Positions 10,849-21,584 of a DNA stretch of 24,668 nucleotides are shown piece after piece. The stretch comes from Promethearchaeota archaeon (GTDB taxonomy: Archaea; Asgardarchaeota; Lokiarchaeia; Sigyniarchaeales; SOKP01). The stretch is taken from positions 1 to 24,668 of the forward strand of contig JAEOSU010000007.1 in assembly GCA_016840165.1 (NCBI GenBank), read 5' to 3'. The notes under the pieces were generated by a model. The model was not told the origin of the DNA and made no database searches. It saw only the letters and a program-made list of their open reading frames with translations. Made by a program: the position numbers and the translations under genes. Each line of letters begins with the position of its first letter. Position 1 is the first letter of the stretch.

Positions 10849-11253
10849 ATGCGATTTATTAAAGAAAAAAAAGAGTTTAAGTCTTCACTTGAAGAACTTT
10901 TAAAAAATGTCATGGATGATGTTAAGGAAATTCAAGCTGCTCAAATAACCGCTGATACGGGACAAGCTCTTGCCTCTGCATTGCCGTCTGACGTCGATGA
11001 TATGCGTTTTGCTGCAATAACTGCCGCATTATGTTCTCTTAGTGAGAGAGCTATTTCTGAAATGGGTTTAGGCGAACTGGAACAAGCCTATATTAAAGGA
11101 GATAAAGGATATGTATTAGTACTTCGGGCAGGAGAAGATCAGGTTCTAACCGTCACAACGACCAATAAAATCAAGCTCGCTCCTATCTTATTTAAACATT
11201 ATAAACACTTCGATAATGATGATAATCTTTTAAGTAGTGAAGCTTCTCTTTAA
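10849..11253 (+). CDS. Roadblock/LC7 (MglB-like) domain protein
   Basis: Pattern DTGQALASALP...RFAAITAALCSLSERAISEMGLGELEQAYIKGDKGYVLVLRAG, typical of the roadblock/LC7 fold. Confidence 0.92.
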   Translation: MRFIKEKKEFKSSLEELLKNVMDDVKEIQAAQITADTGQALASALPSDVDDMRFAAITAALCSLSERAISEMGLGELEQAYIKGDKGYVLVLRAGEDQVLTVTTTNKIKLAPILFKHYKHFDNDDNLLSSEASL

Positions 11254-12100: not shown

Positions 12101-13543
12101 CTAAGTAATTTTTTTATCTTTGATATCAATACCTAAGTCTCGTAATTTATCACGAATTTTATCGCTAAGGTCAAATATTTTTCTATTTCTAAGGTCTTCT
12201 CTTGTTTCTTGCAATATCTTAACTAAAACTTCTATAGTTTTCTCGGCCTCCTCAGTATACGCTCCTGAAAACTTAGAAATCCTAGATTCTAAATCGGGAA
12301 AAATTCCAAATAAAGCATCGAGCTCATCGATAAACTTGAAAAAAGTATCTTTAAAATTCCGAGATATTGGCTTTGCTTCTTGAAGAATGATTCTATTTAT
12401 TTCTCTAGATAATGATAAAAGTTCTGCTATTGCTTTAGGAGTATCTAAATCATCATCTAGGAAAGTTAAAATATTGGAACGTGCTGTAGAAATAGCATTT
12501 GCTAAGTTCTTGGTCGCTTGAGTCTCTTCATTTGAAACATTACTTTCATTGATTTGTTTTATTGTGTTAATTAAGCGATTGTATGACTTTTTCGATTGCT
12601 CCATGTTTTCTAAAGAATAATTGATCGAACTTCGATAGTGACTGGTTATTAAAAACCAGCGTACCACCATTGGATCATATTCTTTAATTATTTCGGAAAT
12701 GAGAAAATAATTTCCCAGACTTTTCGACATTTTCTCATCATCCACATTTATAAAACCATTATGAACGAAGTAATGAGCAAAAGGTTTTCCCGTATAAGAT
12801 TCTGATTGAGCAATCTCGTTTCTATGGTGAGGGAATTTAAGATCCTGCCCACCCCCGTGAATATCAATTGTTTCCCCTAGAAAGTTTAAAGCCATAGCCG
12901 AACATTCAATATGCCAACCAGGCCTTCCCTTTCCCCATGGACTTTCCCAATACGGTTCTCCTTTTTTCATCTTTTTCCATAGGGCAAAGTCCCTTGGATC
13001 ATATTTGTCCTGCCCATATGCCGTATCCTGATCTGTCGAATAATCATCTTCCTCGCCAATATCCTCATCTGATACATTCTGCATTATTTGGTGATATTTT
13101 GGAAAAGAATTCACCGCAAAATAGACGGAGCCTCCTTTTTCATATGCATTTCCCTTTTCAATTAGTTTTTCAATGAAATGTATAATAAATGGTATGACTT
13201 CTGTAGCTCGCGGATTTTTCGTATCTTTGAAAATATTTAACACATCCATCATGTCTTCATATTCTTGGATATATTTCTCAGCAATCTTTCGATAATCTTG
13301 ATTTAATTCATTGGAACGTGCGATAATTTTATCATCGATATCAGTATAATTCTTTATTAGCTTTACCTCAAATCCTTTGAATCTAAAATAGCGATGAATA
13401 AGATCCAAAGACACTGCAGATTTCATGTGACCTAGATGGGGGCTTTCATAAACGGTTGGACCACACCAATAAATTTTAACCTCATTTTTCTTAATGGGTT
13501 TAAAATCTTCCTTCTGAAACGTTAAACTATTGTAAATCTGCAT
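12101..13543 (-). CDS. cysS: Cysteine--tRNA ligase
   Basis: CGPTVY, HLGH (HIGH), NYTDIDDKII, DFALWK, GRPGWHIECSAM, DIHGGGQDLKFPHHRNE, KMSKSLGN, DALR-like DDLDTPKA and anticodon-domain SDKIRDKL. Confidence 0.98.
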   Translation of the reverse strand: MQIYNSLTFQKEDFKPIKKNEVKIYWCGPTVYESPHLGHMKSAVSLDLIHRYFRFKGFEVKLIKNYTDIDDKIIARSNELNQDYRKIAEKYIQEYEDMMDVLNIFKDTKNPRATEVIPFIIHFIEKLIEKGNAYEKGGSVYFAVNSFPKYHQIMQNVSDEDIGEEDDYSTDQDTAYGQDKYDPRDFALWKKMKKGEPYWESPWGKGRPGWHIECSAMALNFLGETIDIHGGGQDLKFPHHRNEIAQSESYTGKPFAHYFVHNGFINVDDEKMSKSLGNYFLISEIIKEYDPMVVRWFLITSHYRSSINYSLENMEQSKKSYNRLINTIKQINESNVSNEETQATKNLANAISTARSNILTFLDDDLDTPKAIAELLSLSREINRIILQEAKPISRNFKDTFFKFIDELDALFGIFPDLESRISKFSGAYTEEAEKTIEVLVKILQETREDLRNRKIFDLSDKIRDKLRDLGIDIKDKKIT

Positions 13544-13568
13544 AAATTATCACTTGATTGTTTTTAAG

Positions 13569-13676
13569 AGCCAGTGATGGGATTTGCACCCATGATGGCG
13601 AAGCCAACGGCTCTGCAGGCCGCCTCCTTAACTATTCCCGTCAAACTTATAAAAGCTTAACCTCGGATACACTGGC
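13569..13676 (-). tRNA. tRNA-Cys(GCA) with long variable arm and a predicted 27-nt D-loop intron (13635-13661)
   Basis: Minus strand: acceptor GCCAGTG/CACTGGC with discriminator U; D-stem TCCG/AGGA; anticodon arm GCGGC-CT GCA GA-GCCGT; variable region TGGCTTCGCCATC; T-arm ATGGG-TGCAAAT-CCCAT. No encoded CCA. Intron boundaries are inferred from a helix-bulge fold. Confidence 0.88.
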
Positions 13677-13819
13677 ATTATTATAGACCAATTCAGCAGA
13701 TTTATGCCTAAATAAGCATACTCTGCTCAACGACATGTATATATTGAGCATGTTAAAAGCTTAGATAAAGTATATGAAATTTTATGATACATGTTGATGA
13801 TCTATTGTTATGGTATAAG

Positions 13820-13833
13820 ATATATAACTTTGC
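13820..13833 (-). promoter_or_regulatory. Candidate BRE/TATA for the tRNA-Cys-cysS unit
   Basis: Minus strand reads GCAAAG TTATATAT (purine-rich BRE plus TATA). The AT-rich background lowers its specificity. Confidence 0.35.
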
Positions 13834-13903
13834 TTAATAATTTTAGATTACCTAAAAAATTTTTTGAAATTAATATTTAAAAAAAGAGAAGATAACAAAA
13901 AAA

Positions 13904-14419
13904 TTAGTTAGATATACATTCTTCACAGCAGGAACCATCTTCACAATAGTCACATTTGCTATAATCGAAGTCAAAAGGAAGGACAAAATCATTAATTACA
14001 TCTGTGACAATATCCATATGTACACTTAAAACATTTTTATTTTTTCTGAAGTGACGATTGATGATTTTATCTAAATGATTTAGTTTTGTACTAGCAACAA
14101 AGACACTTATATTAGATGAACCGCTTAATCGAAAGGCATTGAGCATGTACGGACATTTCTTTACTAGATTAATTATCTCTAAGGGTTTTAAGGTTTGTAT
14201 TTCTACTCTTGCAAGAATGAGATCCATTGTTTTAACGTTAATCCCTGCTTGAAATTTCAGCACGCCAGAATCTTCAAGCTTTCTGATCCTCATCCCAATC
14301 GTGGGTTGACTTCTATTCACTCGCTTAGCAATTTCTGTATGAGTGAGTGTGGGCTCTCTTTGTATTAACTCAATAATATTTTTATCAATTTCATCAATTT
14401 TAAAGACTTTACTCTCCAT
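13904..14419 (-). CDS. Lrp/AsnC-family transcriptional regulator with Cys-rich C-terminal tail
   Basis: IDEIDKNIIELIQ...HTEIAKRVNRSQPTIGMRIRKLEDSGV HTH, a RAM-like domain and tail CDYCEDGSCCEEC. The ATG at 14419 (preceded by GAGGG) is preferred over the TTG at 14434. Confidence 0.9.
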   Translation of the reverse strand: MESKVFKIDEIDKNIIELIQREPTLTHTEIAKRVNRSQPTIGMRIRKLEDSGVLKFQAGINVKTMDLILARVEIQTLKPLEIINLVKKCPYMLNAFRLSGSSNISVFVASTKLNHLDKIINRHFRKNKNVLSVHMDIVTDVINDFVLPFDFDYSKCDYCEDGSCCEECISN

Positions 14420-14687
14420 AATTTTGACCCTCAAAAAGTTTAATTAAGATTTAAAAAATATTATCATTTCTTATTCATTATTAACGATATGCCGATATAT
14501 AAATATTTCCATCTAGCGAATCATTATTCATAAAAATTGATAAAATTGCATTTGAAACTCGTTAAAATCAGTAAATATCTATAAAAAATTAGACAAATCT
14601 TTAATAGGCAAAAGATCGCATTTTATACATATTATTGATTTATAACGGTATAACTATATATAGTAATATGAAATAGGTATTTTTTTC

Positions 14688-15023
14688 ATGAATGAGATTA
14701 GTGGCTATATTAGTGATTTCTTAAAGGCTCTTTCTGACCAAACTCGCTTAGATATTTTATTTTTGCTACAAAAAGAACCAAGAACTTCCGCTGATCTTCA
14801 AGAACTTCTAAAAAAATCTCAATCAACTATTTCACAGCATCTTAAAATTTTATTTGCCAATGAACTCATTAGTTATGAAAAGAAGGATAAAGAAAATTTA
14901 TATTCAATTAAAGATGTTCAAACCTCTAACTTTCTCTCTGAAATAAATTCATTTGTTATTCAAAAGAATAAGGAGAAGTTGGAAGATTTTATTGACTCGG
15001 ATCTTAGAGATATACTGCCATAA
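14688..15023 (+). CDS. ArsR/SmtB-family winged-helix regulator
   Basis: FLKALSDQTRLDIL, SQSTISQHLKIL; no Cys metal ligands. Confidence 0.9.
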   Translation: MNEISGYISDFLKALSDQTRLDILFLLQKEPRTSADLQELLKKSQSTISQHLKILFANELISYEKKDKENLYSIKDVQTSNFLSEINSFVIQKNKEKLEDFIDSDLRDILP

Positions 15024-15049
15024 TTCATTTTTTAAGAGGGACTATAATA

Positions 15050-15598
15050 ATGAAAGAAAACGCTTCTAATGAAAATGACAGAAAAAAGATGCTTTTAATG
15101 GGCTTGGATAAAGGTGGTAAAAGCTCTATAGTTTTATGCTTAAAAGGAATTAGGAATATTGCATCCTTTAATCTATTAAATCCTACAATAAGAATCAATA
15201 GAGAAAATTTTAGATCATATGGTTCAGAATTAAATATATGGGATTTTGGAGGTCAAGAGCAGTTTCGAAATGATTATATCATTAATTTTAATAAGTATGT
15301 TTTGGGAACTGATAAAATTATCTTTGTAATTGATATTCAAGATACGGAAAGATATTCTCTTGCGTTAAACTATTTAATGGAAATTGTGAAAAAAATCCAG
15401 GAACAGAAAATTAATCTCGATTTTTCTATATTTTGTCATAAATATGACCCCGATATAGAAATGACCAATAAAAATTTTGATGAAAGTAAAGTAGATACGT
15501 TTATCGAAGAAATTAAACACAAAATGCCAACAAATTTTCAATATGAAATTTTAAAGACTTCAATTTATACTGTCTTCCAAAAAACAAATATTCATTAG
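15050..15598 (+). CDS. Small GTPase, Rag/Gtr- (RagC-) like within the Arf/Rag group; G domain only
   Basis: G1 LLMGLDKGGKSSI, G2 PT, G3 IWDFGGQ, IIFVIDIQD, G4 HKYD, G5 TSIY. HKxD and TSI[YW] are the Rag-type G4 and G5 forms. Confidence 0.9.
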   Translation: MKENASNENDRKKMLLMGLDKGGKSSIVLCLKGIRNIASFNLLNPTIRINRENFRSYGSELNIWDFGGQEQFRNDYIINFNKYVLGTDKIIFVIDIQDTERYSLALNYLMEIVKKIQEQKINLDFSIFCHKYDPDIEMTNKNFDESKVDTFIEEIKHKMPTNFQYEILKTSIYTVFQKTNIH

Positions 15599-15655
15599 CA
15601 ATTCAATCTAGTTTTAAGAAAGAGTTAAATTTTTTGGCAGAGATGATGGTAATTT

Positions 15656-17494
15656 ATGGTTGGGAAGGAAATAAAGAGTTCCCTTCTTAGTTTGACATCT
15701 ATCATTATCGAATACCTCATTTTTAGCAGCTTATTATTTCTAATATATCTTTCAAGCTTTTATAATTACTTATTATTCCATACAGTAGCTGAGCTTTCTG
15801 CTATCATTATTAGTATAGGAATCTTTATAATTGGTTGGAATTCAAAAGCATACCTTAAAACATCCTTCTTTCTCATTATTGGCGTATCTTTTTTATTTAT
15901 TGGAATCATAGATTTAGTTCACACGCTAGCTTACGCGGGAATGAATATTTTTATTGATTTTACCTCGAATTTACCAACTTCACTTTGGATTGTGGCAAGA
16001 TACTGGCAAGCGTTGTCATTATTATTAGCATTAATACTATTTAATAAGAAAATCAACTTGTATTATTTGGTTTTTTTAAATTTCATTTTTCTGATAATTT
16101 TAATGGAAGCTATTTTTTCAGGTATATTTCCTCTTTGTTACATTGAAGGCGTTGGCTTAACTCCTTTTAAAATTATTAATGAGTATATTATCGATATTAT
16201 CTTTATTATATCCCTTATTTGGTTCTACATCTTAAGAAAAGAATTTGATAAAAAAATTCGTGTTTATATCATAATTTCTACCATCTCTACGATTTTATCT
16301 GAAATAGCATTTACCTTTTATATTGGAGTCTATGATTTTTCTAATTTAGTGGGACATCTACTTAAAATAGTGGCGTTCTATTATATGTATAAAGCCATAA
16401 TTAAAACGGGAATAAAAGAACCATATGATCTACTATTTAGGAAACTTAAGTTAAGTGAAGAAGAATTGAAAATTAGAGCAGAAAGGCTCGAAGATATGGC
16501 AAGTTTCCCTTTGGAAAACCCAAATCCCGTTTTGAGGGTAAATGAAGCTCTTATTATGTCTGCGAATAAAGCAAGTCAAGAAGTTTTTAATACTGAAGAG
16601 GGAAACTTAATTCCTAAAACTTTGCAACATTATATTGATGAATGTTTTAGCACTTCAAAAAATATGGAAACCGAAATAAAAATAGGTGATGCAGTATATA
16701 CATTTTTCTTTATGATTAATGAAGAGAAAGGATACGTGAATATTTATGGTTTAAATATTACTGAGAGAATAAAAGCAAAACAACGCTTAGAAAGATTCGT
16801 AGCAACTGTCTCTCATGAGTTACGTAATCCAATATCTGTTTTAGTTACCTCAACAGAGTTCTTAAATAGTCACTCTGATGAGCTTACAGAAGAGATCATT
16901 CAAAAACTAAAAGAAGGTATGACGAAAAATATTTACTTGCTTAAAGATCTAGTAGATGACATTCTTATGTTATCAAGAATCGATGAAAGAAAAATTACTC
17001 TGGATTTGAGTGAAGTTAAACCCTTTGAGATCATCCAAGAGATATTGATATTAATGGAACCAATTGGAAATCGAAAAAATATGACGTTTAAGGTTAATAT
17101 TGACCCAAATTTGACCATCTATGGTGACTCTAAGCGTTTGGATCAAATATTTCGCATTTTTATTGATAATGCAATAAAGTATTCTGCAAAAGGTAGTATG
17201 GTAATGATTGAATCTGTGGATTTATATCATGGGCAATTAAACAAACAAAACATTGATGGAGTACTATTTTTTATCGAAGATACAGGCATTGGTATCGCAA
17301 AGGATGAGATACCTAATTTATTTAAACGATTCTTTAGATCCGATAAAGTGAGTGATATCCCTGGAACTGGTCTCGGATTGAGCATAGCAAAGGAATTGAT
17401 TGAACTCCATGGAGGTTCTGTAGAGGTTGAAAGTGAATTCATGAAAGGAACTAAGTTTTCTATTTTTCTTCCTAAAAAAAAAGATTATAAATAG
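15656..17494 (+). CDS. Membrane sensor histidine kinase (MASE3 - PAS-like - HisKA - HATPase)
   Basis: MASE3 signatures NYLLFHTVAEL, DLVHTLAYAGM, LWIVARY; FPLENPNPVLRV PAS-like start; H-box VSHELRNPI; N-box DNAIKYS; G1 DTGIGI; G2 GTGLGLSI. Confidence 0.93.
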   Translation: MVGKEIKSSLLSLTSIIIEYLIFSSLLFLIYLSSFYNYLLFHTVAELSAIIISIGIFIIGWNSKAYLKTSFFLIIGVSFLFIGIIDLVHTLAYAGMNIFIDFTSNLPTSLWIVARYWQALSLLLALILFNKKINLYYLVFLNFIFLIILMEAIFSGIFPLCYIEGVGLTPFKIINEYIIDIIFIISLIWFYILRKEFDKKIRVYIIISTISTILSEIAFTFYIGVYDFSNLVGHLLKIVAFYYMYKAIIKTGIKEPYDLLFRKLKLSEEELKIRAERLEDMASFPLENPNPVLRVNEALIMSANKASQEVFNTEEGNLIPKTLQHYIDECFSTSKNMETEIKIGDAVYTFFFMINEEKGYVNIYGLNITERIKAKQRLERFVATVSHELRNPISVLVTSTEFLNSHSDELTEEIIQKLKEGMTKNIYLLKDLVDDILMLSRIDERKITLDLSEVKPFEIIQEILILMEPIGNRKNMTFKVNIDPNLTIYGDSKRLDQIFRIFIDNAIKYSAKGSMVMIESVDLYHGQLNKQNIDGVLFFIEDTGIGIAKDEIPNLFKRFFRSDKVSDIPGTGLGLSIAKELIELHGGSVEVESEFMKGTKFSIFLPKKKDYK

Positions 17495-17544
17495 GATGTT
17501 CGAAAAATTATAATAGTAAACGATCGTTAAGATCAAATCTTATT

Positions 17545-18435
17545 ATGAAACCCAAGATCCTTGTAGTTGAAGATAACCCTGATTTGTTATTTAATATTGA
17601 ATTAATTTTAAAGAGTAATAAATATCAGCCTATAACCGCAAAAAACGGGAAAGAAGCATTAAAAATTCTTTCAAGTATAGAGCAGCCCCCAGATATTATT
17701 ATTAGCGACATAATGATGCCAGAATTGGATGGATATGAGTTCTTTAAAGAAGTGGTTAATGATCCTCGATTGAATAGTATTCCATTTATTTTTCTTTCTG
17801 CTAAAAGTTCTCATCAGGATATTAGATTAGGCAAGTTGTTAGGAGCAGATGATTATATAACTAAACCTTTTGATGAAAAAGATTTATTAGCAGTAATTTC
17901 TGGGAAAATAGCAAGGATAAATCGAGCTAAGTTGCTAAATAACATATTGAAAGAAACTGCCAGTTTAGAAAAGTCCGAAAAGGATATAAAAAAAACAATA
18001 GAAGAAAATCTATATATTTTAATAGCTTTATGGGATGATAAATTTGGTCCAAAAGTTATTGCTATATATCCTAAGGAAAAAGAGATGGAATTTTCTCTAG
18101 ATAATCTTGCTAATCAACTATTTTCTGCTTCGATATCAATCTATGGTCATGAAAAAATAACTAAGTCAGAAGATTTGTTGTTAAATCTAAGAAATTTGAA
18201 AACAGATGCTTATTTGCTATTTGATTCCTATCCAGATAAAAAGGAAAGATTTGGAGAAAAACAATATATGATTGCAGCCTTAGCGAATAAGATTAATTTT
18301 TTCCACTCTTTAGAAATTAAAAAAATCTTTTACAAGATATCAAAATCTATCAAACAAAAAGATAACTACGATTTAGCTTCAAATTGGGATATGATCCATC
18401 GAATATTGCAATCAGAAGTAAAAATAATTAGATAG
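17545..18435 (+). CDS. Response regulator: receiver domain fused to a putative longin/uDENN-like output domain
   Basis: Receiver: LVVEDN, phospho-acceptor D55 (ISDIMMP), LSA, YITKPF. The C-terminal ~140 aa (LYILIALWDDKFGPKVIAIYP...) has no HTH and follows a longin-like pattern. The receiver call is firm; the longin call is inference. Confidence 0.88.
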   Translation: MKPKILVVEDNPDLLFNIELILKSNKYQPITAKNGKEALKILSSIEQPPDIIISDIMMPELDGYEFFKEVVNDPRLNSIPFIFLSAKSSHQDIRLGKLLGADDYITKPFDEKDLLAVISGKIARINRAKLLNNILKETASLEKSEKDIKKTIEENLYILIALWDDKFGPKVIAIYPKEKEMEFSLDNLANQLFSASISIYGHEKITKSEDLLLNLRNLKTDAYLLFDSYPDKKERFGEKQYMIAALANKINFFHSLEIKKIFYKISKSIKQKDNYDLASNWDMIHRILQSEVKIIR

Positions 18436-18439
18436 AATG

Positions 18440-19381
18440 TTAAAATTGATAGAGATCGGTTGACAGATAGCGCTCTCCCGTATCACATACAATAAAAACT
18501 ATATTCTCTCCCTCTCCAAATTCTTTAGCTACAACATTTAAAGCAGCCCATGCGTTAGCGCCCGAGCTAATCCCTGCAAATATCCCTTCTAATTCAGCGA
18601 GATTTCGTGCGGTATCAACCGCATCTTGATAGGATACTTGAATAACTTGATCATAAATTTTTGTATTCAGCGTATCTGGAATGAATCCCGCTCCAATACC
18701 TTGAATTTTATGTGGACCTGGTGACCCACCTGAGAGAACAGGAGAATCTTTCGGTTCAACAGCGTAAACTTTTAATCTTTGTCCCACACGATCTTTTAAA
18801 ATCTCCCCAACCCCAGTAATAGTACCACCAGTTCCTACGCCTGCTACAAATGCGTCAACTTGTCCATCGAGGGCATTAAAGATCTCTTTTGCTGTAGTTC
18901 TTCTGTGGATATCGGGATTAGCCTTGTTTTTAAATTGTTGCGGAATAAATATATTATCTTCAACTTGAGCTAGTTCTTCCGCTTTTTCAATAGCTCCTTT
19001 CATTCCCTTTTGCTCGGGTGTTAGCATCACTTCTGCTCCATACGCTTTAAGAATCTGCACACGTTCCACAGTTACGCCATCTGGCATAATTAAAGTCAAT
19101 TTATACCCTTTAGAAGCACAGACCAGAGCAAGTCCAATTCCCGTGTTTCCAGAAGTTGGTTCAATAATTTTGGTTTCAGAATTGATAATGCCTTCCTCTT
19201 CCGCTTTGATTATCATATTCATAGCTATTCTATCCTTTATACTGCCCCCCGGATTGAAATATTCTATTTTTCCAAACAGATTCGGTTTTAAGTCTTTTGA
19301 AAGGCGATTTATTTTCACTAATGGGGTATTTCCTATTGTATCTATAATATCTTTATAATAATTTACCATTTTGCTTACCAT
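18440..19381 (-). CDS. cysK: Cysteine synthase A (O-acetylserine sulfhydrylase)
   Basis: IGNTPLV, NPGGSIKDR (PLP Lys), PTSGNTGIGLA, GVGTGGT, HKIQGIGAGFIP, DTGERYLST. Confidence 0.97.
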   Translation of the reverse strand: MVSKMVNYYKDIIDTIGNTPLVKINRLSKDLKPNLFGKIEYFNPGGSIKDRIAMNMIIKAEEEGIINSETKIIEPTSGNTGIGLALVCASKGYKLTLIMPDGVTVERVQILKAYGAEVMLTPEQKGMKGAIEKAEELAQVEDNIFIPQQFKNKANPDIHRRTTAKEIFNALDGQVDAFVAGVGTGGTITGVGEILKDRVGQRLKVYAVEPKDSPVLSGGSPGPHKIQGIGAGFIPDTLNTKIYDQVIQVSYQDAVDTARNLAELEGIFAGISSGANAWAALNVVAKEFGEGENIVFIVCDTGERYLSTDLYQF

Positions 19382-19402: not shown

Positions 19403-20248
19403 TTAAATTCCACTTCCATACTCTCCGTAATAAATCTCAATATCATCTTGTTTTTTATCTGAAGACTTATTAATTAGATTCTCTAATTCTCTAATCCTTC
19501 GATCTAAGCTAGAGACAGCTAAAGCAACAGGATCTGGTAAGTCGGCATGTCTTAAATCAATTTTCTGGATCTTCTCATCTATTTTTTCAACTATTCTTCC
19601 TGGTACACCCACAACAACACTATTTGGTGGAACATCATTAATTACTACAGAATTAGCACCAACTCTAACATTATCTCCAATCTTAACGGGACCTAAAATT
19701 TTAGCTCCACTTCCCACTACTACATCATTTCCTAGTGTTGGGTGCCTTTTTTCCTGCTTTAAACTAGTACCACCAAGCACCACTCCCGAATATAAGGTGA
19801 CATTATTTCCTATCTCAGCAGTCTCTCCTATCACAAGCCCTGCGCCATGGTCTATAAAGAAATCACTCCCAATAACTGCTCCCGGATGAATATCAATAGC
19901 GGTTAATTCTATTGCAATATCAGAAATGTAGCGTGGGATAAAAGGCATGTTTAATAACCAAAAAAAATGTGCTATTCGATAAAATAAGACTGCTTTAACT
20001 CCAGGATAACTAGATAAAACTTCAATTAAAGAGTGAGCTGCAGGATCTTTTTTTAAGGCGGCATGTATATCAGAAATAAAAAAATCCAAGATCGACTGTA
20101 AATCAGTAATTATCTGCCCATGATTAAGGTCTTGAATTTTAAATTCTAACCTTAAAATACATTCAGCACAATATGGTACATCTTCACTGGTTTTTGTCTT
20201 TAGACTTTTACCGCAATTTAAACACTTAAGAAAGTTATTAAATTCCAT
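19403..20248 (-). CDS. cysE: Serine O-acetyltransferase with N-terminal CxxC-x14-CxxC extension
   Basis: DPAA...SYPG, IDIHPGAVIG, FIDHGAGLVIGET, KRHPTLG, VVVGVPGR hexapeptide repeats; C-terminus YGSGI. Confidence 0.95.
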   Translation of the reverse strand: MEFNNFLKCLNCGKSLKTKTSEDVPYCAECILRLEFKIQDLNHGQIITDLQSILDFFISDIHAALKKDPAAHSLIEVLSSYPGVKAVLFYRIAHFFWLLNMPFIPRYISDIAIELTAIDIHPGAVIGSDFFIDHGAGLVIGETAEIGNNVTLYSGVVLGGTSLKQEKRHPTLGNDVVVGSGAKILGPVKIGDNVRVGANSVVINDVPPNSVVVGVPGRIVEKIDEKIQKIDLRHADLPDPVALAVSSLDRRIRELENLINKSSDKKQDDIEIYYGEYGSGI

Positions 20249-20405: not shown

Positions 20406-21584
20406 TTGAATATGACAGTCGACTGGGAACAAATTAGGAAGGAGTTTTTCCCTGCTTTAAGGGAACATACCTATATTATGGCAGCTTCCGCATCACCTAT
20501 GAATAAAAAAGCATATGAAGAGGGATTAAATTATTTAAATACTATGTTGAGACATGGGGATATATATTACGAGCAATTTAAGGAACAAGTTGATAAAAAT
20601 CGAGAAATTATAGCGAACTATATCAACGCAAAGCCTGAAGAAATCGCTTTTGTTCCAAATGTATCTGCAGGTATGAATATAATTGCTCGAATCTTAGATA
20701 AGGGAGAGTTTATTTATCCCTCAGTTGAATTTCCCGCGTCAGTACACATATTTAAAAGACTTGGTTATCCAAATAGAAAAATACACCCTACTAATAATAA
20801 ATATCTTATGGAAAACATTAAAAAGGCAACCTCAGGAGATACTAAAATGTTAATTCATAGCCATGTTCAATCTTTAACCGGATTTCGACAAAATCTGAAC
20901 GATCTAAGTGCCTTCTGTCTAAAAAATTCTTTACTAAGTATTATCAATGCTACTCAATCTTTTGGCTCATTTGAGATTGATGTGAAAAATGACCAGATCG
21001 ATGTTATGATAAGTAATACGTTAAAGTATGTTGGATGCGGTTATGGAGCGGGAGTTTTGTATATAAAGCGAGATCTGCTTAACGAAAAGGAAATCCCTTT
21101 TTCTGGTTGGTTAAGTGTGAATGATCCGTTTTCAATGGACAATGAGAATATAAAAGTAATTAATCAAATCCGTTATATGGATACTTTTGGAGGATGTCCA
21201 AACTACGGGGCACTCTTAGCATTAAAAGGAAGTTTTGATTTAATTAAAGTGCAAATAGGGAACGGAGATATTAATAAAGGAGTTAGAAGAATACAAGAGA
21301 GAATTTTAAGGTTGACAGACTTGTTTATTGAAAAGTTAATGGATTTCAATTTTAATATTATAAGTCCTTTAGAAATTGAATTTAGGTCAGGTATTATAAC
21401 AATTGAGCATCAAAAAGCAGAAGAGATTTATGAATATTTAATTAAAAATAATATATATGTAACTTTAAAAAAATTTCCTAATACTAATAAAAATACGCTA
21501 ATACGATTTTCATTTAATTATTATAATAATGAAAAAGATATTGATAGAGTAATTGAGGCTTTTAAGAAGTATAAGTTATTATAA
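20406..21584 (+). CDS. Class-V PLP-dependent enzyme (cysteine desulfurase/CefD-like fold, no catalytic Cys loop)
   Basis: PEEIAFVPNVSAG, EFPAS, HVQSLTGF, NATQSFG, PLP-Lys region SNTLKYVGCGYGAG, RSGI, IRFSFNYYN. The true start may be the ATG at 20412. Confidence 0.82.
   Translation: MNMTVDWEQIRKEFFPALREHTYIMAASASPMNKKAYEEGLNYLNTMLRHGDIYYEQFKEQVDKNREIIANYINAKPEEIAFVPNVSAGMNIIARILDKGEFIYPSVEFPASVHIFKRLGYPNRKIHPTNNKYLMENIKKATSGDTKMLIHSHVQSLTGFRQNLNDLSAFCLKNSLLSIINATQSFGSFEIDVKNDQIDVMISNTLKYVGCGYGAGVLYIKRDLLNEKEIPFSGWLSVNDPFSMDNENIKVINQIRYMDTFGGCPNYGALLALKGSFDLIKVQIGNGDINKGVRRIQERILRLTDLFIEKLMDFNFNIISPLEIEFRSGIITIEHQKAEEIYEYLIKNNIYVTLKKFPNTNKNTLIRFSFNYYNNEKDIDRVIEAFKKYKLL

Follow-up and report, generated by a model that had tools for sequence, protein, structure and literature searches.

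A conserved Asgard gene cassette in which a two-component system probably controls a small GTPase through a longin domain resembling those of eukaryotic GAPs

Analysis of a 24,668-nucleotide contig segment from a Promethearchaeota archaeon (hereinafter, the window) revealed four co-oriented plus-strand open reading frames encoding an ArsR family regulator, a small GTPase, a MASE3-containing histidine kinase and a response regulator in which a REC domain is fused to a longin domain. We propose that this conserved Asgard cassette is a system in which a two-component phosphorelay controls the small GTPase via a longin domain that resembles those of eukaryotic GAPs, and we consider this proposal to be probably correct; our inferences in it concern the co-transcription of the genes, the phosphotransfer, which component controls the other, the assignment of a GAP and not a GEF activity, and the output downstream. 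In eukaryotes, longin domains of the GAP kind switch off Rag and Arf GTPases; most of the longin and roadblock platforms are GEFs, not GAPs.

Gene order and its conservation

The gaps between the four genes are 26, 57 and 50 nt, in this order, and the cassette is flanked on both sides by minus-strand genes, namely one for an AsnC/Lrp-type regulator (13904-14434) and one for a PALP/CysK-like protein (18440-19381) that lies 4 nt from the stop codon of the response regulator gene. The coordinates of the open reading frames agree exactly with the co-orientation, gaps and oppositely oriented neighbors given in a preliminary description of this DNA, and all of its domain assignments were borne out as well, by Pfam for ArsR, the GTPase, the kinase and REC, and by structure for the longin domain. 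The divergent AsnC-ArsR intergenic region (14435-14687; 253 nt, AT-rich, 20% GC) contains TATA-like runs (TATATATA) approximately 25-35 nt ahead of the ArsR start codon (ATG) and, judging from its sequence, is presumed to harbor the promoters of both genes. Runs of six T residues in two of the intergenic gaps of the cassette could be archaeal terminators, so that strict co-transcription is not assured.

Of the 46 genome loci with an upstream flank of 4.7 kb or more, 45 contain all four genes in the same order and on the same strand, with ArsR leading the cassette in each of the 45, and this order is retained down to ~37-40% identity of the longin domain. Across 39 non-redundant loci, the median lengths of the three gaps are 40, 77 and 61 nt, and the longest gap is 133 nt. 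The REC domain is fused to the longin domain in every one of 62 loci, and across the phylum, the REC-longin family is represented in 158 of 400 genomes. The possibility, raised in the preliminary description, that the adjacency is unique to this genome is thus contradicted by the informative loci, and the arrangement is far beyond chance. Furthermore, in all 43 loci where the upstream flank extends for 5.4 kb or more, the divergent neighbor is an AsnC/Lrp gene, which adds a conserved fifth component to the module.

Members of the same longin family occur in several other contexts, including Ras-longin fusions (L080, P0148), HK-REC-longin fusions (P0150, P0160), paralogous clusters of histidine kinases, REC-longins and Ras/Rag GTPases (L070, L079) and fusions of the longin domain behind PAS, RsbRD_N or whole HK-REC modules. 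These contexts, along with the gene order, bear on the possibility that the genes are conserved neighbors without direct contact between the GTPase and the longin domain, in which case REC-longin would have another target, for example, one of the ~28 other Rag-type GTPases of the genome or a membrane or SNARE-like function, and the adjacent GTPase would have a role of its own. Asgard small GTPase genes are generally located outside the operons of their regulators (PMC10933270), the genome contains 29 Gtr1/RagA-type matches (the other strong ones in frames of 290-525 aa), and some paralogous HK-REC-longin clusters (L068, L071) have no GTPase within 6 kb. Nevertheless, the persistence of the gene order to ~40% identity, the GTPase-longin fusions within the same family and a complex model that clears its controls by a wide margin (see below) make this explanation highly improbable.

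Transcription regulators, GTPase and two-component proteins

The AsnC/Lrp-type regulator (176 aa; 13904-14434, minus strand) was identified by Pfam search (HTH_24, 1.7e-14; HTH_AsnC-type, 5.3e-11; AsnC_trans_reg, 6.7e-06) and carries a C-terminal Cys cluster, C..CC-x-[KQ]-C, that is retained in nearly all of 48 distinct orthologs. The first gene of the cassette (14688-15023, plus strand) encodes a 111 aa ArsR/SmtB family protein with the winged HTH of the ArsR type (Pfam HTH_5, 2.1e-14, 53.6 bits against a cut-off of 22; NCBIfam HTH_metalloreg, 1.4e-18, 66.5 bits against a cut-off of 55). The metal- or thiol-sensing Cys/His sites are absent from its sequence, which is devoid of Cys and has its only His in the recognition helix; hence the ArsR protein itself probably does not sense metals or thiols.

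The second gene (15050-15598, plus strand) encodes a G-domain-only Rag/Arf-like small GTPase of 182 aa, with G1 (G18-K24), T46 of switch I, G3 (D65-x-G-G-Q69), G4 (H130-K-x-D133) and G5 (K-T170-S-I). All G motifs, including HKxD and DxGGQ with the catalytic Gln69, are invariant in 43 orthologs. The best Pfam match is Gtr1_RagA (2.6e-22; 79.8 bits, cut-off 22), with Arf a close second (1e-19; 71.1 bits). The nearest solved relatives are the Asgard Rag-like protein 8yl2 (9.1e-22) and LokiRagM (8zla/9m28; 3.6e-18), followed by Arl3, Arl2 and RagC/D. The chain stops 10 residues past G5, and the length of 173-185 aa in all 49 distinct orthologs leaves no room for the C-terminal roadblock domain that mediates Rag-Rag dimerization. 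Accordingly, the protein is Rag-like in its G domain only: the label 'Rag-like GTPase' of the preliminary description holds for this domain (Gtr1_RagA match, HKxD, Gln69) and fails for the C-terminal roadblock domain that defines the Rag family, and assignment as a true Rag/Gtr family member was rejected.

The third gene (15656-17494, plus strand) encodes a membrane sensor histidine kinase of 612 aa that consists of MASE3 (residues 34-256), a PAS-like linker, HisKA with H387 (nt 16814-16816) and HATPase_c with the N, G1 and G2 boxes (Pfam E-values of 5.3e-78, 3.5e-12 and 1.3e-26 for MASE3, HisKA and HATPase_c, respectively). The match to MASE3 (PF17159) is full-length, covering profile positions 2-226 of 226 with 262.2 bits against a cut-off of 31; the match to NCBIfam MASE3_PAS_HK (1.5e-98) falls under the full-length cut-off because the PAS region of the cassette kinase is shorter. 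The H-box SHELRNP (with H387) and the DNAIKY, DTGIGI and GTGLGL boxes were all located.

The fourth gene (17545-18435, plus strand) encodes the 296 aa response regulator, which combines REC (residues 5-118, with D10, D55 at nt 17707-17709, S85 and K107; Pfam Response_reg, 7.5e-25), a long linker helix (residues 111-139) and the longin domain (residues 157-289, nt 18013-18411). In the ortholog alignment, E9, D10, D55 and K107 show no variation, and the conservation of S85 is 90% or higher; together with H387 and the N, G1 and G2 boxes of the kinase, the acidic pocket, Asp, Ser and Lys of REC complete the set of two-component catalytic residues. A REC domain normally serves as the input to the output domain fused to it, and the occurrence of the same longin domain behind PAS, RsbRD_N and HK-REC modules is typical of an output domain. 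These features, along with a conserved Arg and a GP motif beside Gln69 that favor catalysis on the GTPase (see below), argue against the reverse direction of control, whereby the GTP form of the GTPase would bind the longin domain as an effector or input and modulate the phosphorelay at the level of regulator phosphorylation, dimerization or kinase activity, with the real output being transcriptional, via ArsR and/or AsnC. We regard this reversal as unlikely, even though the GTPase gene precedes the kinase and response regulator genes, ArsR and AsnC are both constant components of the module, and the GTPase of the actinobacterial conservon has been proposed to act in a complex with a kinase and a roadblock protein (PMC4316618).

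The longin domain and its predicted contact with the GTPase

The longin domain reported in the preliminary description has no Pfam or PDB sequence match but its fold is supported by AlphaFold2 (AF2), Foldseek, VIA-align and an atlas comparison. For the C-terminal domains of three family members, no Pfam family was detected at E <= 1, including Folliculin (PF11704) and NPR2 (PF06218); a profile of the domain yielded no match among PDB sequences at E <= 10, and the domain fragment only a chance-level one. A search of 1.84 billion proteins with this profile retrieved 206 at E <= 0.001, and among the 150 matches listed, which are mostly of REC-longin size, there was no apparent eukaryotic relative. 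The tie to the eukaryotic GAP longins therefore rests on the fold and short motifs.

The AF2 model of the full-length regulator has a pLDDT of 78, and that of the C-terminal domain alone a pLDDT of 80 and a pTM of 0.79, with the topology b-b-a-b-b-b-a-a. The best VIA-align match of the latter is the Lst4 longin (Z 12.6, rmsd 2.7, 123 aligned residues), followed by the Loki Roadblock-Longin protein 8yqg (Z 11.7), 6nzd_H from the FLCN-FNIP2-Rag-Ragulator entry (Z 11.4), 7o2w_A from the C9orf72-SMCR8 entry (Z 10.6) and 8fw5_C from the GATOR1 entry (Z 10.5); Roadblock/MglB matches reach no higher than about Z 8. In a Foldseek search, GATOR1 chains lead (6e-05), and the atlas comparison gave TM scores of 0.75 for SMCR8, 0.74 for the FLCN/SMCR8 uDENN and 0.66 for NPRL2. 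At the level of the modeled structure, the C-terminal domain is thus confirmed as a longin of the FLCN/NPRL2/SMCR8 type. The regulator stops 7 residues beyond the longin helices and lacks the DENN or NPRL2 C-terminal domain. This longin family is represented by a single copy in the source genome, so that a longin dimer can only be a homodimer.

Within the wider longin family, conservation is strongest in a WD/GP motif, W163-D164-D-K-F-G168-P169 (nt 18031-18051, plus strand), at the b1-b2 turn, where the AF2 full-length model places G168-P169 between strands 157-164 and 168-175. W163, D165, G168 and P169 are invariant in alignments of 28 and 48 orthologs, and among 49 divergent family members, the W, D, G and P of the motif are present in 45, 38, 43 and 43, respectively. 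The W-D-x3-G-P spacing is identical to that of C9orf72 (W33-D34/G38-P39; PMC12290439). The GP motif, which ends the b1-b2 loop in FLCN, NPRL2, SMCR8 and C9orf72, is reported to be specific to GAP longins and missing from the non-GAP longins of TRAPP, adaptin and DENND; together with an Arg finger, it is a published mark of GAP longins (PMC12290439). The candidate arginine finger of the regulator is R235, in the b4-b5 loop (nt 18247-18249, plus strand), which is invariant in the same sets of 28 and 48 orthologs and kept in 30 of the 49 divergent family members, being missing in about a third of them.

A model of two longin copies with the GTPase reached an ipSAE of 0.76 (0.78, 0.73 and 0.76 in individual runs) compared to 0.05 for the best control, and passed a mark that was attained for 58 of 80 solved complexes and for 2 of 110 mismatched pairs in a calibration that covered neither ligands nor user-supplied alignments. 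Agreement between the runs extends to 86% or more of the contacts, and the pLDDT of the partner is at least 83. The predicted interface involves residues 164-170, helix 186-204 and R235/F236 of both longin copies, and residues 20-21, 44-48 and 69-72 of the GTPase. In this arrangement, the P-loop, switch I and the catalytic Gln69 are contacted by residues 164-170, with the GP loop, and by Arg235. The preliminary description had asked whether R235 enters the nucleotide site; in the model, this residue is placed on the elements of that site. The pass may reflect memory by the modeling program of solved longin-Rag/Arf complexes, and the model locates the contact of the two proteins rather than the ensuing reaction.

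The longin domain might instead bind the GTPase as a GEF, a dual GEF/GAP or a nucleotide-state platform, similarly to TRAPP, Mon1-Ccz1, DENN or MglB, so that phosphorylation of REC would switch the GTPase on. Longin/roadblock dimers are mainly GEFs and only occasionally GAPs (PMC10933270), and the uDENN domains of DENND1 (a Rab35 GEF) and the longins of Mon1-Ccz1 and TRAPP are among the structural matches of the C-terminal domain, at Z 8-10. However, GAP family longins are the best structural matches, the GP motif that is reportedly specific to them is invariant in the regulator along with an Arg, and the contact between the GP loop and the catalytic Gln69 has the least expected error in the complex model. 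Activation of the GTPase by the longin domain therefore appears to be a possible but rather doubtful alternative.

Under the GAP mechanism that we favor, a membrane-associated signal would cause the MASE3 kinase to autophosphorylate H387, and the phosphate would pass to D55 of the response regulator. Phosphorylation of D55 would then, via the long linker helix and REC dimerization, rearrange the longin-longin dimer, which is predicted to bind the neighboring G-domain-only GTPase over both switches and the P-loop. GTP hydrolysis would be stimulated there through the WD/GP loop and Arg235, with the GTPase supplying its own catalytic Gln69. Candidates for the output are the Cys-less ArsR and/or the AsnC regulator, which may act on the neighboring thiol and cysteine genes.

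Relationship to known systems

The regulator shares with FLCN-FNIP (acting on RagC/D), the NPRL2-NPRL3 pair of GATOR1 (RagA/B) and C9orf72-SMCR8 (Arf) the best-matching longin fold, the GP motif at the b1-b2 turn (and, in the case of C9orf72, the W-D-x3-G-P spacing), accompanied by a conserved Arg that is a candidate counterpart of their Arg fingers, a Rag/Arf-type putative client G domain with a catalytic Gln and, here as a prediction, a longin dimer placed over the P-loop and both switches. Unlike these complexes, to which it has no HMM-detectable sequence homology, it has neither a DENN or C-terminal domain nor a gene for a heterodimeric partner, and WD, GP and Arg are all located on a single chain, so that a homodimer is presumed. 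Its input is a fused REC domain and a histidine kinase instead of a lysosomal amino acid sensing scaffold, and its putative client GTPase lacks both a roadblock domain and a Rag partner.

NPRL2-like longin domains fused to REC, PAS or HK modules in Asgard archaea have been described, and viewed as eukaryote-like regulators connected to prokaryotic two-component signaling, by Liu et al. (bioRxiv 10.1101/2020.10.19.343400). Going by the accessible part of that preprint, the proteins are of the same kind as those analyzed here, with matching architectures of the longin family; that part presents domain architectures only, naming neither a GTPase partner nor an analysis of the WD/GP/Arg motifs nor a model of a complex, and the conserved ESP operons given there (ESCRT; LAMTOR1-Rab-DENN) do not include the cassette. 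The preliminary description had presented the locus as an undescribed system; to the extent of this text, novelty does not extend to the REC-longin fusion, which was already published, but stands for the fixed GTPase partner, of which we found no description in the literature.

Three other prokaryotic systems combine similar components. The actinobacterial conservon, which consists of the histidine kinase CvnA, the roadblock/MglB-like CvnB, CvnC and the MglA-like GTPase CvnD, is likewise a conserved operon with a membrane histidine kinase, a roadblock superfamily protein and a small GTPase (PMC4316618), but it has no response regulator and no ArsR or AsnC, its roadblock protein is not a longin and its GTPase is of the MglA rather than the Rag/Arf type. 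In the MglA/MglB/RomR polarity module of Myxococcus, a dimeric roadblock superfamily GAP regulates a small GTPase, and the REC protein RomR is part of the circuit (PMC9481161, PMC6785124). As far as the accessible portions of these papers indicate, it differs from the cassette in that REC and the GAP fold belong to separate proteins, MglB being a roadblock protein, its genes do not form a single cassette that includes a kinase, and the Rag/Arf arrangement of the catalytic Gln is absent from MglA. The REC-Roadblock proteins of Thaumarchaeota (NitrOD3) are archaeal response regulators whose output is a roadblock superfamily domain and not a DNA-binding one, as in the cassette, but this output is a roadblock instead of a longin domain, and neither a GP/Arg motif nor an adjacent GTPase has been described for them (PMC5847659). 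The cassette yields a concrete, testable pair of a GTPase and its putative regulator in an Asgard archaeon.

Organization and conservation of the cassette

The preliminary description reported four co-oriented genes separated by gaps of 26, 57 and 50 nt and bounded by genes on the opposite strand, and all of these features are present in the ORF listing (14688-15023, 15050-15598, 15656-17494 and 17545-18435, all on the plus strand). The flanking genes encode an AsnC/Lrp regulator (13904-14434, minus strand) and, only 4 nt beyond the stop codon of the last cassette gene, a CysK-like PLP enzyme (18440-19381, minus strand). The window is AT-rich, with a GC content of 28-31% across the cassette. 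Pfam and NCBIfam searches assigned each of the previously proposed identities: an ArsR/SmtB winged-helix regulator (gene 1), a small GTPase (gene 2), a MASE3-HisKA-HATPase_c histidine kinase (gene 3), and a response regulator with a receiver (REC) domain in residues 5-118 (gene 4). Two of the intergenic gaps contain T6 runs which, given that five more such runs occur within coding regions, say nothing on terminators. Neither ARAGORN nor Rfam (at gathering thresholds) detected RNA genes in the window. A candidate intron-containing tRNA-Cys at approximately 13569-13676 (region 13544-13903) likewise had no match in these searches and, if real, would have to be non-canonical enough to escape both.

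A pattern scan with one genome per species yielded 63 loci, in records labelled Promethearchaeota, Hermod-, Hod-, Thor- and Odinarchaeota, which were compared with the proteins of the window using tblastn. The four genes are found in the same order and on the same strand in 45 of the 46 loci whose upstream flank is 4.7 kb or longer, the sole exception merely having no detectable ArsR match, so that the adjacency is not unique to this genome. The divergent AsnC/Lrp gene is present in all 43 loci with enough flank, and the REC-longin fusion in 62 of 62. Among 39 non-redundant loci, the median intergenic gaps are 40, 77 and 61 nt (maximum 133 nt), distances that would suit an operon, although they are no proof of one. 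Asgard metagenomes contain hundreds of relatives of the full-length REC-longin protein. Of 400 sampled genomes of the phylum, 158 contain the family, which is near-universal in the taxonomic family to which the window belongs (119/134) and in one other (21/22), sporadic in some of the remaining families and missing from many. In the genome that contains the window, the REC-longin family is single-copy.

The output domain of the response regulator

Residues 140-296 of the response regulator matched no Pfam family (E ≤ 1) and no PDB entry in a profile search (E ≤ 10). A search with the C-terminal domain fragment produced just a chance-level match to Fuzzy (E 1.4), and the scores of an ESM Atlas feature search (0.80 or less) were unusable. 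A profile search of 1.84 billion representatives recovered the Asgard family alone (206 clusters); the 150 listed include no eukaryotic relative, and homology to FLCN or NPRL2 at the sequence level did not emerge.

Modelled by itself with AF2 from a 48-row alignment (pLDDT 80, pTM 0.79), the C-terminal domain has the topology b-b-a-b-b-b-a-a. Comparison with about 48,000 PDB representatives using VIA-align identified the longin domain of Lst4 (Z 12.6), that of a Lokiarchaeal Roadblock-Longin protein (Z 11.7), a chain from the FLCN-FNIP2-Rag-Ragulator entry (Z 11.4), C9orf72-SMCR8 (Z 10.6) and GATOR1 (Z 10.5). GATOR1 chains were also the top Foldseek matches (6e-05), and the ESM Atlas shape search retrieved SMCR8 (TM 0.75), the FLCN/SMCR8 uDENN domain (0.74) and NPRL2 (0.66), along with Asgard clusters including a GTPase-longin fusion (TM 0.73). 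Together, these matches bear out the earlier assignment of a longin output domain. A Roadblock/MglB identity was considered and rejected, with VIA-align Z scores of 7-8.5 compared to 10-12.6 for longins and a topology that has two C-terminal helices and no N-terminal helix.

The longins with GAP activity, FLCN, NPRL2, SMCR8 and C9orf72, are marked by a GP motif just ahead of the second strand, which is reported to be missing from non-GAP longins, and by an arginine finger; in C9orf72, the essential W33-D34 lies five residues ahead of G38-P39 (PMC12290439). In the response regulator, W163-D164-D-K-F-G168-P169 lies at the turn joining strand 157-164 to strand 168-175, with a WD-to-GP spacing identical to that in C9orf72. 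W163, D165, G168, P169 and R235, the candidate arginine finger, are invariant among the orthologs; in 49 divergent family members (20-40% identity), W is kept in 45, D in 38, G in 43, P in 43 and R in 30 proteins. Judging by the predicted fold and these motifs, the output domain belongs with the longins of the GAP type. A role of this domain as a GEF or a platform, as opposed to a GAP, appears unlikely.

The GTPase partner and the proposed mechanism

The cassette GTPase (182 aa) shows the highest Pfam score with Gtr1_RagA (79.8 bits), with Arf a close second (71.1 bits). The motifs G18-x4-G23-K24, T46, D65-x-G-G68-Q69, H130-K-x-D133 and K-T170-S-I are invariant in 43 orthologs, indicating that the catalytic Gln is retained and that G4 is the Rag-style HKxD. 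The protein ends 10 residues past G5, and all 49 distinct orthologs are 173-185 aa long, so that lack of a C-terminal roadblock domain is characteristic of these GTPases and does not result from truncation. The genome has 29 Gtr1/RagA-type matches, and the strong ones other than this GTPase fall in frames of 290-525 aa. The nearest solved proteins are the Asgard 8yl2 and LokiRagM (8zla/9m28), followed by Arl3, Arl2, RagC/D, Arf6 and Gtr1. Thus, the label "Rag-like" holds for the G domain but not for the missing roadblock domain, and on sequence grounds the protein is best classified as a Rag/Arf-like GTPase that consists of the G domain only, and not as a Rag.

The kinase and the receiver domain look functional as well. 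The kinase has its H-box histidine (His387) along with N, G1 and G2 boxes. In 28 homologs, the receiver residues E9, D10, D55 and K107 never vary and S85 hardly does. The ArsR protein contains no Cys and a single His and is therefore unlikely to be a metal sensor; it might serve for autoregulation or as the transcriptional output.

A complex of two longin-domain copies with the GTPase, GTP and Mg was modelled, and obtained an ipSAE score of 0.76 (0.78, 0.73 and 0.76 in individual runs) against 0.05 for the best control. This mark was attained by 58 of the 80 solved complexes and by 2 of the 110 mismatched pairs in a benchmark calibrated without ligands or user-supplied alignments. The runs share at least 86% of contacts, with a partner pLDDT of at least 83. 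On the longin side, the predicted interface involves the WD/GP loop (residues 164-170), helix 186-204 and R235/F236 of both copies; on the GTPase side, it includes residues 20-21 (P-loop), 44-48 (switch I, with T46) and 69-72 (switch II, with Gln69), and the residue pairs with the least expected error connect the GP loop to Gln69. The model that the preliminary description had called for thus passes against the controls and places R235 in the interface; it supports binding between the GTPase and the longin domain without demonstrating it. Given that longin-Rag and longin-Arf complexes have already been solved, the pass may reflect likeness to known structures. We consider it highly improbable that the two proteins do not interact directly.

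Under what we regard as the most likely, and on balance probable, mechanism, the MASE3 kinase would phosphorylate D55, and the long helix 111-139 together with REC dimerisation would re-set a longin homodimer, which would act as a GAP for the neighboring GTPase, with Arg235 as the finger. The reverse arrangement, with the GTPase upstream in the circuit, seems very unlikely.

Other copies of the domain link the longin family to two-component signaling and GTPases independently of the cassette. Longins of this family are fused to Ras-family GTPases (L080 and P0148, an Asgard locus and protein), to whole HisKA-HATPase-REC kinases (proteins P0150 and P0160), and to PAS, RsbRD_N, DUF1638 and TPR modules. 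In two further Asgard loci, L070 and L079, paralogous clusters of kinases and REC-longin genes adjoin Ras- and Rag-type GTPase genes. The fusions and the paralogous clusters imply that the longin domain behaves as an output module serving small GTPases. The direct Ras-longin fusions (L080:6893-8140, minus strand, and P0148; 415 and 378 aa, respectively) retain the WD, GP and Arg residues and look like self-contained combinations of a GTPase and a candidate GAP in one chain. L079:1168-3039 (plus strand) encompasses a tandem REC-longin gene pair between two histidine kinases, followed by Ras-type and Rag-type GTPase genes, and might represent the system in heterodimeric form. An FLCN/FNIP-like split into catalytic and non-catalytic copies was rejected because both L079 copies retain WD, GP and Arg.

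Genomic neighborhoods and implications

The AsnC/Lrp regulator carries a C-terminal Cys cluster, C..CC-x-[KQ]-C, that is kept in nearly all of 48 distinct orthologs in both types of neighborhood and may form a tail for metal, Fe-S or redox sensing on a regulator of the feast/famine type. In the window, this tail (approximately 13904-13960, minus strand) reads C-x2-C-x5-CC-x2-C. In the clade that includes the window, the flanks encode CysRS (12101-13543, minus strand), the CysK-like enzyme, a CysE-like hexapeptide acetyltransferase (19403-20248, minus strand) and a class-V aminotransferase (20406-21584, plus strand). The CysE-like protein contains an N-terminal C-x2-C ... C-x2-C before the hexapeptide core and matches SATase_N of Pfam weakly. 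The cysteine-related neighborhood is not a universal trait: a convergent CysK gene is found in just 24 of 58 loci, all in the closer clade. In 28-30 of 32 loci of the distant clade, an HSP20 gene in the same orientation comes next after the cassette; farther on, convergent genes encode a thioredoxin-reductase-type flavoprotein, two or three thioredoxin/glutaredoxin-like proteins and a MOT1-type transporter (for example, in loci L039:6564-6926, plus strand; L035:6460-8071, minus strand; and L041:9460-10617, minus strand). HSP20 as a fifth operon gene, an arrangement that holds for 28 of the 32 distant loci, does not apply to the window, the copy in this genome being on another contig. Both types of neighborhood concern thiol chemistry, which we treat as a lead rather than as functional evidence. 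Separately, a stand-alone Roadblock/LC7 protein (10849-11253, plus strand; 134 aa; Pfam 1.3e-15) is encoded 3.4 kb upstream of the cassette, a position that is conserved in the orthologous loci L001 and L003 at the least.

Along these lines, the cassette might be a prokaryotic forerunner of Rag-type nutrient signaling tied to thiol/cysteine status, although we deem this quite unlikely. In this scenario, the membrane kinase and AsnC/Lrp, whose CC-x-x-C tail is conserved, would signal the supply of sulfur or amino acids or the redox status; the minimal Rag-like GTPase would have its state set by the REC-longin GAP and would in turn act via the Cys-less ArsR on the neighboring genes, namely those for CysRS, CysK and CysE in one clade and the thioredoxin-system and HSP20 genes in the other. 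If so, a longin-GAP/Rag-like amino-acid-linked switch would be older than eukaryogenesis.

The cassette had been put forward as an undescribed system. The work of Liu et al. (bioRxiv 10.1101/2020.10.19.343400) proposes Asgard growth control centred on two-component systems with eukaryote-like regulators, and both the REC-longin fusion and the general idea are already published there; for the cassette itself, the fixed G-domain-only GTPase partner and the AsnC and ArsR members, we found no description in the openly available literature searched. Operons of this kind are reported to be generally lacking (PMC10933270), and the cassette is an exception in which one longin regulator is fixed beside one small GTPase, upstream kinase included. 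The partner of the Asgard longins of the FLCN/SMCR8 type with a GP motif has been left open (PMC12290439), and the cassette makes this question directly testable, its parts being small, mostly soluble, expressible and assayable. If the longin homodimer is indeed a GAP, the catalytic longin mechanism of GATOR1, folliculin and C9orf72-SMCR8 would predate eukaryotes, and its input in Asgard archaea would be bacterial-type His-Asp signaling.
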